From Nitrosopumilus sp. (GTDB lineage: Archaea > Thermoproteota > Nitrososphaeria > Nitrososphaerales > Nitrosopumilaceae): 64,000 bases of DNA. Position 1 is the stretch's first letter. Each line of letters begins with the position of its first letter. The notes below the pieces were generated by a model. It saw nothing but the letters and a program-made list of their open reading frames with translations, ran no database searches and was not told where the DNA came from. The position numbers and the translations under genes are program-made. This document shows, piece after piece, positions 1 through 38,564 of the stretch. The stretch is from positions 32,001 through 96,000 of the forward strand of contig OZ244651.1 in assembly GCA_965218695.1 (NCBI GenBank), in the 5' to 3' direction.

Positions 1-1132
1 TCATCGTATGCCGCAGCTGTGGCGAGCGCGCCTCCTGCGCGGCCAGCAGTTTTGCCCTCTCAAACACCCACTTGTGGTCCTCGTGGAGCTGCTGCTGCCG
101 CCGCCGGACACGTTTGGTCTCGGGAGGCACGGCGCAGTATTTTTCTGCCAGGTGCCTTGTCTGCCGGAGGTCGTGCGCCCAGCACGACTGGTGCATGCCG
201 TCCTTGTCAAACCTGTCATATCCGGTGTACCCGTCAGTTATCGCCACCCCGTCAAATTTGTCCATGGCATCGAGCATGAGCGTGGCCCTGCTCTGGCTGA
301 TGTTTATTGCGATGTTTTTGCCCGACTGTGCCACGTTTGCGTGTACCTTCTGGCCGTCGTTTCGCCAGCTGGTTTCGTCAAACCCGGCACAGTCAGAAGC
401 CTCCACTTCCCCGAGGATCCTGCCTGCCTCGTGGCCCGAGGCGTCCCCGACGCGTGCCATGATGTTGTTGACGGTGGATCCTGCAAGCATAATGCCCGTT
501 ATGGAGCGCACCGCGACCGAGATTCCCTTGAGCGGCACCCGTGCCGCGCGCAGTTCTGAGACGAGTCCGACCATGCCCTTGCCGAAGTTGCCCCGCCGCG
601 GCAGGTCGTTTGGAGCATCTTCCCTGCGGCCGCATGAGCCGCATACTGCAGTCTCCACGCGGTGCCGCGTCTCGCACGCAGTCACCCTGATGTCCGTGAT
701 GTCCCGCACGCGCGGACTGCCAATCGCCATCCGGCCGCCGCCGCCGCCGCACCCGCATTCCGGGAGCACCGGCACCCGCCTCCTGCCCGACTTCCTGCGC
801 CCGAACCTGTGGGATACGGTCCTTTCCGGGTCGTGGGGGCGCGACGCCCCCGCGTGTCCCTTTCTTCCCCCGCGCTTGGATTTGCCCTCCTTTTCCTGTT
901 TTTTTGCCCGCTCCCTCTTCTGGGCCTTCCATTCCAGGGATTCAGATGAGGGCGGCGTGTTGGGGTTTGTATAGTATGTCATGAGGCGTTCGCTGTACCC
1001 CAAGGCCCTTTCAAGACGTTCTATCCTGCCAAGTGCCTTCTCAAGATCGGATTTGAGGGTGGCAATCTCCCGGTTCCGTGCTAGGAGTTCCTCTTTTAGC
1101 TGGTCCCTGCTCATGTGCCGTGAATTTACCAT
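1..1132 (-). CDS. IS66 transposase (TnpC type), 3' part outside the window
   Basis: Same reading frame as the complete ORF at 5248-6696. Confidence 0.9.
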   Translation of the reverse strand, partial: MVNSRHMSRDQLKEELLARNREIATLKSDLEKALGRIERLERALGYSERLMTYYTNPNTPPSSESLEWKAQKRERAKKQEKEGKSKRGGRKGHAGASRPHDPERTVSHRFGRRKSGRRRVPVLPECGCGGGGGRMAIGSPRVRDITDIRVTACETRHRVETAVCGSCGRREDAPNDLPRRGNFGKGMVGLVSELRAARVPLKGISVAVRSITGIMLAGSTVNNIMARVGDASGHEAGRILGEVEASDCAGFDETSWRNDGQKVHANVAQSGKNIAINISQSRATLMLDAMDKFDGVAITDGYTGYDRFDKDGMHQSCWAHDLRQTRHLAEKYCAVPPETKRVRRRQQQLHEDHKWVFERAKLLAAQEARSPQLRHTM

Positions 1133-1209: not shown

Positions 1210-1298
1210 GATGGCAGGACGCTAGGTTCGGGATCTGCCCGGGCACACGTCACGGGGGATCGGATTGCATGAGGAGGGGGGATGAAGGGAGGGGGCGG

Positions 1299-1652
1299 TC
1301 AGAGGAGCTTGAGATCTCCAGTAACCCTGTCTATCATGTCCTCGGGGGCGGGTCCTATCGAGATGCAGGTAGTCGTGCCAGGTGCCAGCTGGGTGTGTCC
1401 GGCATCGCTCACCTCGGACCAGGGCAGGTTCAGATCGATTGCATGCGTCCGTATCTGGTGCAGTTCCTTGAGGCTTGACACCTTCAGGACCACCTTTTCC
1501 TGCGACCCCCACCAGGCTGCATGCCAGTCTGGGTGGGATCTTCGGACGTGCTCTGCGCCCATGACGCACGCATGCCCGACCTGCGCTGCTATCTTTCCGC
1601 GCCCCATGCCGAGGTCGGTCCGCACCACTATTACCTGTTTGACTTCCCCCAT
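1299..1652 (-). CDS. pth2: Peptidyl-tRNA hydrolase Pth2
   Basis: KQVIVVRTDLGMGRGKIAAQVGHA, DAGHTQ...PGT.T.ISIGP and DRVTGDLKLL are PTH2 family motifs. Start set at MGEVKQ. Confidence 0.95.
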   Translation of the reverse strand: MGEVKQVIVVRTDLGMGRGKIAAQVGHACVMGAEHVRRSHPDWHAAWWGSQEKVVLKVSSLKELHQIRTHAIDLNLPWSEVSDAGHTQLAPGTTTCISIGPAPEDMIDRVTGDLKLL

Positions 1653-1702
1653 ACGGTAATGAGACATTGCGCCCGTTGAAAAACTTTGAGTTAAGGGTTC
1701 TG

Positions 1703-2501
1703 CTAACTTGGCGGGAGCTCGAGAGTCGTGTTAACTTTCGTAAGCTGTTTGCCGCTTGATTCTGGCACCTTGCCAGAATCCGTCAACTGATCCGCATCGA
1801 CTGAAGGTTCCACCACGAGACTTGTCCTCCCATGGCTCACTCTCACCATCGCTTCACTTGCGGATCCTACGTGCCCGACCTCCAGGCCTCGCACGAGGAT
1901 GTTTGCACTCGCGTTTTTATCACGATCCACCGTGATATTTCCGACAGGGCATCGCATCACTCGGCGCTCTTCGGTGATCATCTTTCCACCACATGCCGCG
2001 CACTTTGAGCTTGTGCCCCTTGGATTTACCAATATTGAGACGTCACCGTTGGCTTTTGCCTTGTAGTCTATCTGCCTTCCAAGTTCGTAGTAGCCCCAGT
2101 TCTTGCCACGAAAGTTGGCATTCTTTCCCCACCTGCCGGGATTGTCATACAGTTTTGTGATTCCCACCAAGTCTTCCCTGGCCGGGACGTGTCCTGACCT
2201 GGTGATCTTTTTGCTTGTCTTGTGGAGGATGTCCAGGGTTTTGTTTCTTCCCAACCTGCCGTACTTGCCTGCTATCTTTTTCCTGATTCTATGGTCATTC
2301 CGTCTGAAATGGGATAACGGTTTCCCTGCATTCTTGTTTTATCTTGCCGACTTTTGAGAGGTCGTGCATGAGCACGATGCCGTCCGTATCACATGTGGTG
2401 ACGTTGTCAAAATTCATGTCTATGCCCATGTATCCTTGGGCCTGCCTTTTCCCCACCTTTCTTGAATAGGCCATGATCAACTTCTTTGGCGTGATCGTTA
2501 T
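1703..2501 (-). pseudogene. tnpB: TnpB (RNA-guided RuvC nuclease family), frameshifted and 5'-truncated
   Basis: RuvC-I MGIDMN (ORF 2295-2480); RuvC-II EDL, VNPRGTSSKCAACG zinc finger and RuvC-III DRDKNASANI (ORF 1703-2254). The frame stops at the MITE edge at 2502. Confidence 0.88.
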
Positions 2502-2699
2502 GGCTCTGGTAAATTTAGGTGATCTCTACCGTTCCCCGTTCAAAAGTGTGGTTTAAGATCTACCGATTCGGCCCAACATATTTCGTCAGGGAATTCAAAA
2601 ATGTTATGCCCCCAATAATGCTGTTCAAAAAGTGAGCTGGCCACACCCGCACCTTGGTGGTAGATTTCGGTAATCAGATCACTAGAATTTACCGGAGCC
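2502..2699 (+). mobile_element. MITE-A copy 1 (about 198 bp, IS6-type ends)
   Basis: TIRs GGCTCTGGTAAATT ... AATTTACCGGAGCC. Homologous to 7290-7469 and to the reverse complement of 8379-8581. No TSD. Confidence 0.85.
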
Positions 2700-2841
2700 G
2701 ATGCAAGTCCGGGGAAGGAAACAGAACGGCAATGGCCCACAGTAGGATTGGATACGATTTGACATGGAAGCACCTTGTGGACGTTTGGACACATATGGTT
2801 ACAACAGAGCCATTGTTTATGATAAAAAAATATAAAAGAAT

Positions 2842-3520: not shown

Positions 3521-3571
3521 GGTTCTCCTGCATCATCGGTTGGTGACACAAAATCAGGATCTTCTCCAGAT

Positions 3572-3748
3572 TCACTCGTCTGGCCTGCGCACCATTATGT
3601 CATCACCGGAAATGACAAACTTTAGTTTGTCGGGATTGCCAAGCATTTCAAGTATCGGTTTTGGTATGTAGCTGTAGTTTGTCAGACGCTTCTCGTTTTT
3701 GATCACAGAAACGGTAAATTCCTTGGCGTCTTTGGCCCACTGGGTCAT
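3572..3748 (-). CDS. 58-aa AbrB/SpoVT-like putative DNA-binding protein inside the IS (absent from the ORF track)
   Basis: Manual translation: MTQWAKDAKEFTVSVIKNEKRLTNYSYIPKPILEMLGNPDKLKFVISGDDIMVRRPDE. IPK.I.E.LG followed by beta strands resembles the AbrB swapped hairpin. Divergent from the transposase across an AT-rich gap. Confidence 0.7.
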   Translation of the reverse strand: MTQWAKDAKEFTVSVIKNEKRLTNYSYIPKPILEMLGNPDKLKFVISGDDIMVRRPDE

Positions 3749-3819
3749 GAATTTTTTTTAGCTGCCTGTTATTTAAGACTGGTAGAAAGATCTATGTAAT
3801 AATACCAATTGGTTTATTT

Positions 3820-4965
3820 ATGAACAGGGCAAAACGCGCCAAAACGGCGGCAAGGCAGGGACAGGTGATCAGCAACGACCCAAAGCAGGTGAGGATGACA
3901 AGTCTCAGACGATGGAATGTGGCATCGCAGTCTATTCCAGGACTGTGGTATCTGGTGATTCTTGGCTCTGCCGGGTTTGTATGCGCGTGCCAGCATTACG
4001 TCAATTGTGACGGCCTGTGCAAGCACGTGCGGGCAGTGGACGTGTTGCTTGGCCGGATGTGGGACCGGTGCAGGAACCAAAATACAATTGTCATTAGCAT
4101 GCCTCAGACTGCATGCCACCATTGCAAGTCGACTGTGTTTGCACGCAACGGGCACCGACACAACGCGTACGGGCCGATCCGGCGGTACCGGTGTAAGCCG
4201 TGCGGCCGGACATTCTCCGGACGGCCGGGCTTCAAGAAGCGCCATGCCGGCCCAGAGGCGATATCCCGGGCACTCAGGGAGGCAGCGTACGGGCTGTCCT
4301 GCGCTGCGGTGCAGGCAGTGATGGCACAGGACGGAACAACCGTGCATTCAAGCACGATATACAGGTGGACTGCACATTATTCGACGCTGATGGATGAATA
4401 TTCAAGGCGGCTGCAGCCGCGCACGAGCTACAAGTGGCACTGCGACGAGATACATTTCAAGGTTCGCGCGCAGGCGCGGTGGCTTTTTGCCGTCATGGAC
4501 GGCGCCAGCAGGTTCATACTGTCCCATGACGTGTCTGAGACAAAACTCAACTACAGACCCGCCCCCCTGTTTGCAGCCGCAAGGAATCTGGCCGGAACCA
4601 CCCCGTGGGTGCTGGTAACAGACGGCCTGCAGGCGTTTTGTCCTGCCGCCCGCAGGGCGTTTTGGAGACGCAACGGCTTCAGGCTGATCCACGTCCGGGA
4701 GATTCACCTGAAGAACCGCTTCAGTCATAACAACAAGCACGAGAGGCTTAACGGCGAATTCAAGGATCGCATCAAGACCGCCCGCGAGTTCGGGACAGAA
4801 AGTCCCGCGCTTGTGCGGCTGATGATCGTCCACCACAACTTTTTCCGCCCCCATGGCGGCATTGGCAAAATTACACCCGCAGAGGCCGCAGGGATCGTCA
4901 TATCTGGAACGGACAAGCAGATCACCCTCATCAGTAATGCAGCAGCTGCTGCTGCAGCAGCGTAG
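3820..4965 (+). CDS. DDE transposase (IS6/IS1-like) with N-terminal SWIM finger and zinc ribbon
   Basis: SWIM CACQH...CKHV; ribbon CHHC...YRCKPCGRTF; HTH VHSSTIYRW; catalytic WHCDE, VTDGL and NNKHERLN. Confidence 0.88.
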   Translation: MNRAKRAKTAARQGQVISNDPKQVRMTSLRRWNVASQSIPGLWYLVILGSAGFVCACQHYVNCDGLCKHVRAVDVLLGRMWDRCRNQNTIVISMPQTACHHCKSTVFARNGHRHNAYGPIRRYRCKPCGRTFSGRPGFKKRHAGPEAISRALREAAYGLSCAAVQAVMAQDGTTVHSSTIYRWTAHYSTLMDEYSRRLQPRTSYKWHCDEIHFKVRAQARWLFAVMDGASRFILSHDVSETKLNYRPAPLFAAARNLAGTTPWVLVTDGLQAFCPAARRAFWRRNGFRLIHVREIHLKNRFSHNNKHERLNGEFKDRIKTAREFGTESPALVRLMIVHHNFFRPHGGIGKITPAEAAGIVISGTDKQITLISNAAAAAAAA

Positions 4966-5010
4966 TCGCAGCAGCAGCAGTAGCAACGGCAGCTGTAGCA
5001 ACGGCAGCGA
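4938..5010. repeat. (GCA)/(GCT)-rich microsatellite across the transposase stop codon
   Basis: gcagcagctgctgctgcagcagcgtagtcgcagcagcagcagtagcaacggcagc; encodes a poly-Ala C-terminus. Confidence 0.8.
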
Positions 5011-5228
5011 CACACGTAGCCCAGACTGGCCTTGGCGTGATGGATGTCCCATCAATGCATGTCATGGCAATGACTGGGATTATCCATCACAACTGGCAGA
5101 TTCTCCCTAGAGGAATTATGATTTAATGGGGAATGGCATAACGGTGCGTAAAACAGGCAAGTAAATCTGGAGAAGATCCTGAATTTGTGCCACCAACCGA
5201 TGATGCAGGAGAACCGTAAGCAGGCGTA

Positions 5229-37076: not shown

Positions 37077-37277
37077 GGACTAGCCAAACAAGATACTGAA
37101 TATAAGTATGTGTTTGAGGGGTTGCATCAGGCGGGACATATGGACATTCACGCCCATCCCTGACCGGAATCCGTGCGTCCGTGCGTTCCGGCAAAGTTAT
37201 CAGAAGGCCCGGGTGTTTGATCTGGACCCCTGTTTTTGGTACCACTTTTTGCATCTTTTTCCGAATAATCCTGCCTC

Positions 37278-38111
37278 TCATTTATTCCCAACCTCCATCT
37301 TGCCTACAAACTCATCAGGTGTAAGATATCCCAGCGCCGAATGGATCCTGTCCTTGTTGTAGTCCTCAAAGGCCTTTGCAAGCACGACCTCGGCATCCTG
37401 AAAGCGTGCAAATTCATGCGGCCAGATGTACTCCCTCTTGAGCGTCCCGTGGAATGACTCCACGTGTCCGTTCTGCTCCGGCGTCTGCTTCCAGATGAAC
37501 TCGTGTCTTATCCCCAGTGCCTGCATGGCCTTTTTGAATTCGCGGCTGCTGTACTGGGAACCGTTGTCGGTCCTGAGCCTCAGGTTTGAGATCTCTCCTG
37601 CAGACGACACCGCCTTTAGCACCGATTGCACTGCCGTGTGGGCAGGAGCCGTGGTGTCAAACATGTACGCCACCCACTTTCTGGTGAACACGTCAAGGAC
37701 GTTGAAACAGTAGCACCATCCATCAATCCCGCAGTGGATGTACGTTATGTCAGTCTCCCATAGCTGGTTGGGTGCGGTGGGCTTGAACCTCCTGCGCCTT
37801 GAGGCACGAATGATGTCGTTTTTAGTCTTTTTGGGCTCGATCCAGCCTATTTTGTGATATATTCGCTGTATTCTCTTGCGATTTGTTGGAATGTTTGTCT
37901 CCCTGGTGACCTGCGCTGCCATGCGCCTGGTTCCGTACGTGGGACGCTTGGAGGCTATGGTTCTTACCACGTCAACCACGTCCGGGTCCATGGCCACGTC
38001 TCTTGGCTTCTTGGTGTAGTACCAGGCATGCTTGGACATGCCGCAGTACTGCAGGGCCTTGTTCAGGCTCATACGCTTGCTTACATCACTGATGGCCTGC
38101 ATCTTCATCAC
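37278..38111 (-). CDS. IS3 OrfB (integrase-like DDE domain)
   Basis: YG.RR, PNQLWETDITYI, TDNGSQY, ESFHGTLKRE, RIHSALGYLTP. Confidence 0.95.
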   Translation of the reverse strand: MMKMQAISDVSKRMSLNKALQYCGMSKHAWYYTKKPRDVAMDPDVVDVVRTIASKRPTYGTRRMAAQVTRETNIPTNRKRIQRIYHKIGWIEPKKTKNDIIRASRRRRFKPTAPNQLWETDITYIHCGIDGWCYCFNVLDVFTRKWVAYMFDTTAPAHTAVQSVLKAVSSAGEISNLRLRTDNGSQYSSREFKKAMQALGIRHEFIWKQTPEQNGHVESFHGTLKREYIWPHEFARFQDAEVVLAKAFEDYNKDRIHSALGYLTPDEFVGKMEVGNK

Positions 38112-38386
38112 TTTGTTCCCTCCAAAGTTTTTTTTAAAATATCGTTGGCTACGGTGATCTCACCGATTATGCGCTTGAGGTTTTCCACCTCTGCCAAATG
38201 GTTTTTGGCCGCATCTCCCCTGTTTATGAGAGCATGTTTGCCTCCCTGCAGGAACTTGCCCTTCCAGTCCTGAAAGGTTGCAGGAGATATGTTGTGCTTT
38301 CGGCACAGCTCGGCAGCCGGCACATTGGTGGTAAAAAATTCCATCACTATCATGACCTTGTCTTGTGGACTTCGCCTCTTGCTCAT
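38108..38386 (-). CDS. IS3 OrfA (HTH + leucine zipper)
   Basis: AELCRKHNIS...F..W...F, ENLKRIIGE...ILKK; A8 slippery run near its end. Confidence 0.9.
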   Translation of the reverse strand: MSKRRSPQDKVMIVMEFFTTNVPAAELCRKHNISPATFQDWKGKFLQGGKHALINRGDAAKNHLAEVENLKRIIGEITVANDILKKTLEGTK

Positions 38387-38564
38387 GCCCTTCCCTCGAC
38401 CCCCTGCTCCAAAAAACATTCGGATTTGATCGGTCTCATTCTAGCGGGGTCCGGCCCATGTTGGGCATGGCCGGAAGTCATACAGACAGGGAAATCGGAT
38501 TGCGTTCAATTCAAGGCAGGGGTGCCTGTCAGAATAAGCCGTACGCAAGGCGTGGCTGAAGGAC

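Follow-up and report, generated by a model that had tools for sequence, protein, structure and literature searches.

A truncated Nitrosopumilus tnpB gene with an IS6-type inverted repeat at its 3' end and its relatives among archaeal tnpB-only elements with 8-bp target duplications

The RNA-guided nuclease TnpB is usually explained through the insertion sequences (ISs) of the IS200/IS605 family, in which excision is scarless and single-stranded and the target-adjacent motif (TAM) of the nuclease is the target motif of the transposase. In the IS1341 group of this family TnpB stands alone, the 3' end of tnpB doubles as part of the guide-RNA (omegaRNA) scaffold, and guides derive from the flank; as far as the sources used here go, the elements have no inverted repeats or target duplication, carry subterminal hairpins and belong with a Y1 TnpA. 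Here we report the computational analysis of a tnpB remnant located at positions 1696-2501, minus strand, of a 64,000-nt stretch of Nitrosopumilus sp. DNA (positions 32,001-96,000 of contig OZ244651.1, hereafter the window), which comes from an IS-rich genome of 2.63 Mb (G000). The remnant and its relatives resemble the IS1341 group in their solitary TnpB, in a scaffold that is predicted to overlap the tnpB 3' end and in a guide that would come from the flank, whereas none of the other traits of that group holds for them. Instead, the remnant is likely to be the inactive 3' portion (about 60%) of a non-autonomous transposon that consisted of tnpB and its scaffold between IS6-type inverted repeats.

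The association of TnpB with DDE transposases has been described before. TnpBs encoded with such transposases between inverted repeats, as well as solo TnpBs within ends of this kind, have been published (Altae-Tran et al. 2023, PMC10691335), and the partners named are IS630 in that study and ISL2, IS630 and IS1031 in a 2026 review (PMC13565253). As in the DDE-associated branches, TnpB lies here between inverted terminal repeats with the tnpB 3' end less than 250 bp from the transposon end and, as reported for the solo TnpBs, the ends are similar to ends found on elements with a transposase, and the transposon end is spanned by the guide adapter of the putative omegaRNA (PMC10691335). Unlike in those branches, the ends and the 8-bp duplication are those of the IS6 family, and no cis-linked transposase was found. 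Short inverted repeats at the termini and target duplications of 8 bp characterize the IS6 family (Varani et al. 2021, PMC7986276), and archaeal members, longer members whose transposases bear an N-terminal zinc finger, rare miniature inverted-repeat transposable elements (MITEs) and passenger genes are points of likeness between IS6/IS26 as reviewed and the elements treated here. The reviewed members differ in measuring 700-900 bp, with one passenger-carrying member and two MITEs, and the parts of that review covered here yielded no TnpB; the transposase elements described below are 1.9-4.6 kb long, some with cargo, and stand beside many transposase-less tnpB carriers. In the literature searched, the covered parts of the IS6 review included, IS6-type ends, 8-bp duplications or a TAM 5' of the duplication were not found for TnpB; the supplements of PMC10691335 may list an IS6-linked branch. 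DDE-linked TnpB is thus already known, and the new element here is the IS6-type link of archaeal tnpB-only elements, for which we found nothing in print. Fanzor genes, too, reportedly lie inside eukaryotic DDE transposons, as Bao and Jurka are said to have noted in 2013. They share with the present elements the setting of a TnpB-family nuclease amid inverted repeats and target duplications, and differ in being eukaryotic or viral, usually beside a transposase and in other transposon superfamilies (PMC13565253).

The open reading frame (ORF) 1703-2254 encodes the C-terminal part of a TnpB (Pfam PF07282, Cas12f1-like_TNB, 57 bits) and is 69-71% identical to residues 202-382 of an intact 395-aa paralog in the same genome. 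The RuvC-I fragment upstream of it occupies a reading frame at 2295-2480, with similarity that carries on to ~2501-2504; pairwise alignment with the paralog places a 1-nt indel, and with it a frameshift, near 2304-2317, and stops lie within the match. At 2501/2502 the remnant is cut off at the edge of a copy of MITE-A, a small repeated element, and the left end, the duplication on that side and codons 1-139 are gone. The initial annotation had held that all three RuvC acidic residues remain and that the copy is a pseudogene. Both statements are borne out: the motifs GIDMN, REDL and DRD are all left in the truncated, frameshifted remnant and align with the intact paralog (REDL and DRD also with the chains of ISDra2 TnpB), the triad columns being invariant or nearly so in an alignment of 11 proteins, and the two frames together cover only residues 140-382 of the paralog. 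Judged by its sequence, the window copy is a dead pseudogene remnant, and activity is not likely.

At the 3' end, the terminus GGTTCTGCTAACTTGGCGGGAGCTC begins at 1696, and the tnpB stop codon (CTA at 1703-1705) lies inside it, as had been noted. Direct counting also reproduced its match to the MITE-A end consensus at 11/14 and 17/25 positions; the MITE-A copy at 2502 itself reads ...AAATTTAGG..., one base off the consensus as quoted, and the consensus form is present at other copies. The probability of a 17/25 match between two random 25-mers is ~7e-6 to 1e-4. The 7-mer CAGAACC alone proves nothing because it is common in this genome, with 901 occurrences versus ~321 expected. The 13-mer AGTTA(A/G)CAGAACC, in turn, occurs only five times in 2.63 Mb; these sites include the window terminus and both ends of the intact paralog element, and the remaining two show the same end architecture with no transposase or TnpB ORF nearby. 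This repeat-end architecture was found at seven termini in the genome, and the 52-nt extent given to the window repeat was set by analogy with the repeat of the paralog. The terminus at 1696 holds as a true IS6-type inverted repeat and not as a chance match.

The intact paralog (C1:2389795-2390979) is the only close one in the genome. It is 78% identical to the remnant in DNA, it scores 121 bits with NF040570 (TnpB family), and its terminal 13-mer agrees with that of the window at 12/13 positions. DNA identity between the two ends at window position 1784, and beyond this point both have the same architecture, namely two GTTAAC-type boxes exactly 28 nt apart. According to the initial annotation, a chance origin of the IS6-like end would be indicated by conservation that ends near 1781 and by homologs that sit with a Y1 or serine TnpA; this did not turn out to be so, for the identity does fall at 1784, the end architecture resumes beyond it, and no Y1 TnpA was found in the genome (serine TnpA was not searched for). 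The paralog lies in a unit of 4,580 bp (L001:1016-5595) that has inverted repeats of 52 nt at its ends and a perfect 8-bp duplication, TGAATTAT, around it; in the repeat search, the arms came out at 58 nt with 86% identity because they took in part of the duplication. Two nested, unrelated ISs make up the extra DNA of the unit, and what remains without them is ~1.39 kb in the order repeat, tnpB, repeat. One of the two is an IS66 element with its own 44-nt repeats. The other carries a DDE_Tnp_4 gene, which was considered as a partner of tnpB and rejected, since it belongs to an independent IS with its own ends, 3-bp duplications and more than 20 near-identical copies. The two adjoin each other in the interval from the left repeat to the tnpB start codon (L001:1191-4382, corresponding to G000:C1:2386590-2389781), and because the IS66 element ends 13 nt before the ATG, the native promoter of the paralog has probably been lost. 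A solo MITE-A-like end is located directly inside the left repeat of the unit (L001:1068). In a second, more distant paralog pair (42% identity) the inverted repeats are ~25 nt long, with the duplication CTTGCATG in one copy and a 6/8 match in the other.

The initial annotation had further suggested that the terminus at 1696 could pair with the inverted repeat ending at 2699, in which case 1696-2699 would be one composite element reaching from the tnpB terminus to the outer MITE-A repeat. The two ends do face inward and match at 17/25 positions, and the MITE-A-like sequence just inside the left repeat of the intact paralog would also fit such a composite. The pairing was nevertheless not upheld, as 2502-2699 is a self-contained MITE-A with two repeats of its own and with ~25 copies across the genome as a unit of ~200 bp, the MITE edge coincides exactly with the break in tnpB at residue 140, no second copy of the 1,004-bp unit is present in the genome, and the flanks GAGTTAAG (1688-1695) and GATGCAAG (2700-2707) match, as had been stated, at 5/8 positions only. 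A composite element is accordingly given very little credence, and the MITE-A copy is a separate element and not the partner end of the tnpB element. Besides the copies of ~200 bp, MITE-A occurs as 47-bp palindromic minis. Its repeats resemble the tnpB/IS6 ends (17/25), and no target duplication was seen in 16/16 copies checked, so that MITE-A is not established as an IS6-type element.

The TnpB clade is present in 10/101 sampled genomes of the same archaeal family. Most of the family homologs (29-45% protein identity) end in ...ACAGAACC, from a few to ~100 nt past the stop codon, and many of them lie in elements of 1.25-1.36 kb that contain tnpB alone and have clear GGTTCTGTCGGGTT(A/G)TCG-type inverted repeats; the same end pattern read backwards, which served as a control, is absent. 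Perfect 8-bp duplications flank 11/16 family elements examined (10/15 without L020, which comes from the unpublished genome G077), while one of the others has a duplication of 7 bp, one a 6/8 match and three none; L038 and L030 are one orthologous insertion in two genomes. Three of the 11 are internally deleted derivatives of 565, 796 and 852 bp, and in the deletion derivatives L039, L040 and L041 tnpB is gutted while repeats and duplications are still perfect. In one element (L054:587-2988, corresponding to G094:C1:1611586-1613987), with 30-nt repeats (93%) and the duplication CTATTATA, tnpB is split by an IS5/IS1182-like transposase gene; as an insertion that splits tnpB, this DDE gene was rejected as a partner. 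No DDE transposase gene that belongs with tnpB between the same ends was found at the loci examined, and such DDE genes as do lie within tnpB elements come from unrelated ISs nested in them. Unpublished genomes underlie L020, L069, L070 and the tandem array on G077:C15, and G092 and G093 were scanned only; the main conclusions stand without these data.

The clade extends well beyond the family. A collection of species-representative genomes was searched with an alignment of 11 proteins, 80 loci were kept, and their ends were searched for allowing up to 2 mismatches in the terminal 8-mer and requiring at least 15/24 repeat identity. The loci are labelled Nitrosopumilus, Nitrosotalea, Nitrosotenuis, Cenarchaeum, other Thaumarchaeota, Nitrososphaerales, Bathyarchaeia, Asgard archaea and, in one case, a metagenome-assembled genome of Gammaproteobacteria. 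A repeat pair was found at 38/80 loci, with a perfect 8-bp duplication at 18/80 and a 7/8 match at 7 more, and these 25 comprise 9 Bathyarchaeia, 5 Thaumarchaeota, 4 Nitrosotalea, 4 Asgard archaea, 2 Nitrosopumilus/Nitrosopumilaceae and 1 Nitrososphaerales; the remaining 42/80 gave no repeat pair by the same end-search criteria, some of these loci being cut by contig ends. The repeat pairs of the clade match at 15-24 of 24 nt, and up to 52 nt in the paralog, and in a Bathyarchaeota element the first 17 nt of the repeats are those of the paralog in G000. That homolog conservation would stop exactly at ...CAGAACC and be accompanied by target duplications had been proposed as a check, and it does so, with 8-bp duplications frequent. 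These alignments show the terminus at 1696 to correspond to an element end common to a whole clade of archaeal tnpB-only elements with GGTTCTGT repeats and 8-bp duplications.

The same data bear on the possibility that the remnant derives from an ordinary IS200/IS605 element of the IS1341 group, moved as single-stranded DNA by a Y1 TnpA, with the likeness to GGTTCTG ends arising by chance. TnpB as the only encoded protein, the NCBIfam assignment to the TnpB family, the fall of DNA identity with the paralog at 1784 and the frequency of CAGAACC in the genome would all agree with such an origin. However, IS200/IS605 elements have neither inverted repeats nor target duplications (PMC3119063, PMC13565253), and the repeat pairs and perfect 8-bp duplications of the clade (11/16 and 18/80) already contradict it; moreover, no Y1 transposase (PF01797) was found in G000, G094 or G008, with G084 and G035 having one. 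We consider this explanation highly improbable.

Ends of the same type surround IS6-family transposase genes. The IS6 profile NF033587 gave matches in 71/201 family genomes, 26 above the curated cut-off, and the transposases concerned have an N-terminal zinc-binding domain. At 28 loci, for each of which only ~1.5 kb of flanking sequence per side was covered, the transposase gene is enclosed by a GGTTCTGT-type repeat pair in 10/28, with a perfect 8-bp duplication in 7, all of them from published genomes; three further IS6 elements of this kind are present in the unpublished G077. The element in the genome of the remnant (C1:1109206-1111904) is 2,699 bp long, with repeats that match at 29/30 positions and the duplication CTGTGGCA. 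In G170, a genome of the same genus, an IS6 element of 4,573 bp (L101+L100, G170:C5:99343-103915) is flanked by the duplication TGTTTTAG; the first 15 nt of each of its two repeats are identical to the window terminus, and the overall matches are 22/30 and 21/30. The same ends and duplication length are thus shown to flank genuine IS6-family DDE transposase genes in the family, the genome of the remnant included. The proposal that this tnpB lineage is carried between IS6-type ends is supported by the repeat pairs, by the 8-bp duplications and by the ends shared with IS6-transposase elements. As the tnpB elements encode no transposase gene, they are non-autonomous and not full IS6/IS26 members.

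Several of the transposase-bearing loci have features of their own. The G170 element carries genes for the S and M subunits of a type I restriction-modification system as cargo, and a second IS6-type element with the same 8-bp TGTTTTAG lies directly beside it. In L070 (G077:C15:1448-7537, unpublished) three IS6-type elements follow one another head to tail, each spaced by the 8-bp TGATATTT, an arrangement that looks like repeated insertion into the duplicated target beside an existing end. Upstream of the transposase gene, L069:1870-2895 (G077) and L068:1928-2815 (G094) hold a second ORF at a conserved position (341 and 295 aa, respectively) that has no Pfam match. At the IS6-like locus L042/L068 of G094 a GGTTCTGTCAACTTAC end lies 12 nt past the stop codon, and no partner end for it was found. 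The ISH6 family also has GGT ends and 8-bp duplications; it was considered and rejected, NF041731 giving no match above 31 bits in five genomes.

The last ~150 nt of tnpB are strikingly conserved in DNA across elements with only ~30-45% protein identity, and this region is predicted to contain the scaffold of the omegaRNA. A long-range helix of 7 bp is formed there by the segment just 5' of an invariant UGAAG and a segment that starts within an invariant GAUG. Its sequence varies, with five or more versions retained: the window and the paralog share GAUCCGCA/UGCGGAUC, while other elements have GCUUUCA/UGGAAGC, CGAUGCA/UGCAUCG, CAGUACAA/UUGUACUG or further variants. Among 18 sequences, standard pairs make up 88.9% of cells as against 66.6% in shuffles, both sides have changed at 7/8 pairs, and 0/500 shuffles reach any of the five measures, although the structure was derived from the same 18 sequences and is therefore somewhat favored in this test; slid registers of the helix pair in only 22-42% of cells. 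Such double changes in a coding region appear hard to explain otherwise. The RNAs of the window and the paralog fold alike (z-scores -2.8 and -2.9, respectively). In the predicted fold, a first domain is closed by the long-range helix; in a second, GUUGAC/GUUGGC pairs with the repeat box GUUAGC/GUUAAC and encloses the perfect 10-bp hairpin GATTCTGGCA-CCT-TGCCAGAATC that the initial annotation had pointed out at 1758-1780 and that is indeed present, and ~6 nt (AGAACC) remain unpaired at the very end. Relatives have a hairpin of different sequence at the position of this hairpin, and no Rfam match was obtained for window positions 1500-2800. The covarying helix and the shared fold support a predicted guide-RNA scaffold that ends in the repeat, and in this model the inverted repeat of the transposon appears to be built into the last stem, in line with the 'guide adapter' modularity proposed by Altae-Tran et al. 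(PMC10691335).

A short motif was found beside the duplication when elements were oriented by tnpB and the three bases 5' of the left duplication copy were scored. In a first set WTR occurs in 12/13 independent events, with T at -2 in 12/13 (binomial P ~5e-6 to 1e-4 for T frequencies of 0.30-0.40). The expectation was fixed on this set before it was applied to the independent 25 elements of the wider scan, where T is found at -2 in 21/25, R at -1 in 22/25, T or A at -3 in 24/25 and T-then-R in 19/25; the mirror positions after the right copy hold no comparable signal (A at +2 in 11/25). WTR, which stands in the tnpB orientation only and just 5' of the duplication, looks like a candidate TAM. 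In an empty site the order would be WTR, 8-bp target and right flank, a match for a guide read outward from the right end. In an occupied site, ...ACC stands before the right duplication copy and the repeat comes after the left one, so that the element would spare itself.

These observations can be joined into a mechanism, in which IS6-family transposases would move the tnpB elements in trans. The last stem of the omegaRNA would be supplied by the repeat, with ~6-8 nt (...AGAACC) between this stem and a guide that is copied from the flank; the WTR that directly precedes the left copy of the 8-bp duplication would be the TAM, and TnpB would recognize the empty site (TAM, 8-bp target and right flank) and not the occupied one. 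The window copy would have inserted 28 nt upstream of pth2 and later lost its left end and codons 1-139 where MITE-A now sits, and it would have gained its frameshift. We propose only tentatively, as a possibility that falls somewhat short of even, that a pan-archaeal TnpB/omegaRNA clade has been rebuilt for IS6 transposition in this way, with the repeat as last guide-RNA stem, a guide that starts with the 8-bp duplication and a WTR TAM 5' of it.

In the window, the gene downstream of the terminus is pth2 (PF01981), whose ATG (1665-1667) is 28 nt from the element end, and the would-be right copy of the target duplication is 1688-1695. The initial annotation had supposed that the guide RNA could read through the repeat into this flank, the pth2 leader; the stop codon and the predicted scaffold both run into the repeat, which is consistent with read-through of this kind. 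In contigs of a related organism (X4, X6), pth2 is ~93% identical (window 1289-1687) and aligned up to 1687, where 3.4 kb without a match to the window follow. The break in the alignment hints weakly at an absence of the insertion there and at an element boundary no more than 9 nt from 1696, and the organism may hold the empty site of the window insertion.

A number of points weigh against mobilization by IS6-family transposases and have to be set beside the evidence for it. The IS6 transposase that the initial annotation expected to be linked to tnpB was not found in cis, for tblastn over the 43 loci retrieved with IS6 or ISH6 transposase models gave no case in which tnpB and an IS6 transposase lie within one repeat pair, and the sole TnpB-like fragment in those loci is outside any defined repeat pair; what stands of that expectation are the shared ends and the same duplication length which, with no cis link, point to mobilization in trans. 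No IS6-family match (E 1e-20) was obtained in G084, G035, G008 or G059, drafts of 90-130 contigs that all have tnpB elements of the clade, and the G084 derivatives with perfect repeats and duplications imply recent mobilization. The IS6 element in the genome of the remnant has only the first 8 nt in common with the window repeat (GGTTCTGTGTAATC... versus GGTTCTGCTAAC...), and a cognate transposase in this genome is therefore not established. The window copy no longer has its left end or its duplication, so that it can be judged only through its relatives. IS6 transposition, moreover, is held to be replicative in the sources covered, so that the usual rationale for TnpB, the restoration of an excised copy, is not obviously applicable. 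Finally, the control for the candidate TAM is small: at the flanks of 10 transposase-bearing IS6 elements, T-then-R occurs in 0/10 in one orientation and 2/10 in the other, which argues against a symmetric transposase preference and is compatible with an asymmetric one.

Part of this evidence would suit transposons with genuine inverted repeats and 8-bp duplications that are moved by some other enzyme, a Cas1-type integrase or an unrecognized DDE family, with IS6-like ends acquired by convergence or end capture. The missing cis-linked IS6 transposase and the four genomes that have clade elements and no IS6 match fit this alternative, and so do the presence of Cas1 in G094, G084 and G008 and the aCas1-linked TnpB flanked by repeats that is described in Asgard archaea (Altae-Tran et al. 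2023, PMC10691335). Against it, Cas1 was not found in G000 or G035, and the identical termini of 14-15 nt and the identical 8-bp duplication length are shared with elements in which the sole transposase reaches or exceeds the IS6 family cut-off. Casposon duplications, for their part, are longer than 8 bp. None of the candidate enzymes is common to all five genomes checked (G000, G094, G084, G008 and G035), which again counts against IS6-driven mobilization. We judge mobilization by another enzyme to be unlikely, if appreciably less so than the two alternatives dealt with above. Of still lower probability, and the least probable of the explanations weighed, is that TnpB itself, an RNase-H-fold nuclease, cuts and joins the elements and so makes them autonomous: tnpB is their sole gene, and some genomes with recent copies have no candidate transposase, but strand-transfer activity of TnpB is not on record in the literature covered, and the derivatives with gutted tnpB (L039, L040, L041) that keep perfect repeats and duplications fit an enzyme acting in trans. 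Non-autonomous tnpB elements with IS6-type repeats remain the reading we favor, and the features that it assigns to the window are compiled in Table 1.

Table 1. Features of the tnpB remnant and its surroundings; positions refer to the window
Feature	Positions	Strand	Remarks
Right-end inverted repeat of tnpB element, IS6 type	1696..1747	(-)	GGTTCTG at the outer end; pair of GTTAGC/GTTAAC boxes, 28 nt apart
tnpB C-terminal reading frame, 183 codons	1703..2254	(-)	RuvC-II, zinc ribbon, RuvC-III; stop codon inside repeat
tnpB fragment, other frame	2295..2501	(-)	About paralog residues 140-206, RuvC-I GIDMN; tblastn matches in two frames
Flank that a read-through guide would copy	1676..1695	(-)	pth2 leader/promoter region; geometry inferred from intact relatives
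Predicted omegaRNA scaffold	1696..1872	(-)	Long-range helix 1859-1866 with 1789-1796; GUUGAC (~1782-1787) paired with repeat box GUUAGC
Perfect 10-bp hairpin in terminal domain of predicted scaffold	1758..1780	(-)	In minimum-energy fold
MITE-A copy, a separate element, abutting the tnpB truncation point	2502..2699	.	Own inverted repeats 2502-2526 and 2675-2699

Other ISs are present in the window and throughout the genome. IS-Z (window 3521-5215) is 1,695 bp long and has six copies, 83-nt inverted repeats starting GGTTCTCCTGCATC and 9-bp duplications in 5/6; its 381-aa transposase, which bears a zinc-binding domain at the N-terminus, stays below the cut-offs of the IS6, IS481 and rve models. 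It was rejected as the mobilizer of the tnpB elements on account of its 9-bp duplications and because only GGTTCT is common to its ends and theirs. A second IS (window 37212-38458, corresponding to G000:C1:69212-70458) with a weak IS240-like (IS6-like) transposase has five copies; its ends bear no relation to GGTTCTG, and in the four copies compared neither inverted repeats nor duplications were obvious. An IS66-family transposase gene (window 2-1132, minus strand) runs off the window start. Across the genome, 109 tblastn matches to one IS66 transposase and the more than 20 copies of the DDE_Tnp_4 IS were counted; its 2.63 Mb compare with 1.2-2.0 Mb for most relatives, and the large size has apparently come about through IS expansion.

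Many archaeal TnpBs thus lie not in the IS200/IS605 setting from which the function of TnpB is usually explained but in elements with IS6-type ends, 8-bp duplications and no transposase of their own. Recent reviews have raised the question, for prokaryotes as well as for Fanzors, of how a guide-RNA nuclease could serve a DDE transposon that duplicates its target, and the inferred geometry of TAM, duplication and flank, if true, would offer an answer. The selfish 'homing' logic of IS605 would in this way be extended to a target-duplicating and presumably replicative DDE transposon, and TnpB could then bias the survival or the landing sites of insertions. The element boundaries of hundreds of archaeal 'solo TnpB' genes would become readable from sequence, and with them the 3' ends of their guide RNAs and candidate TAMs.

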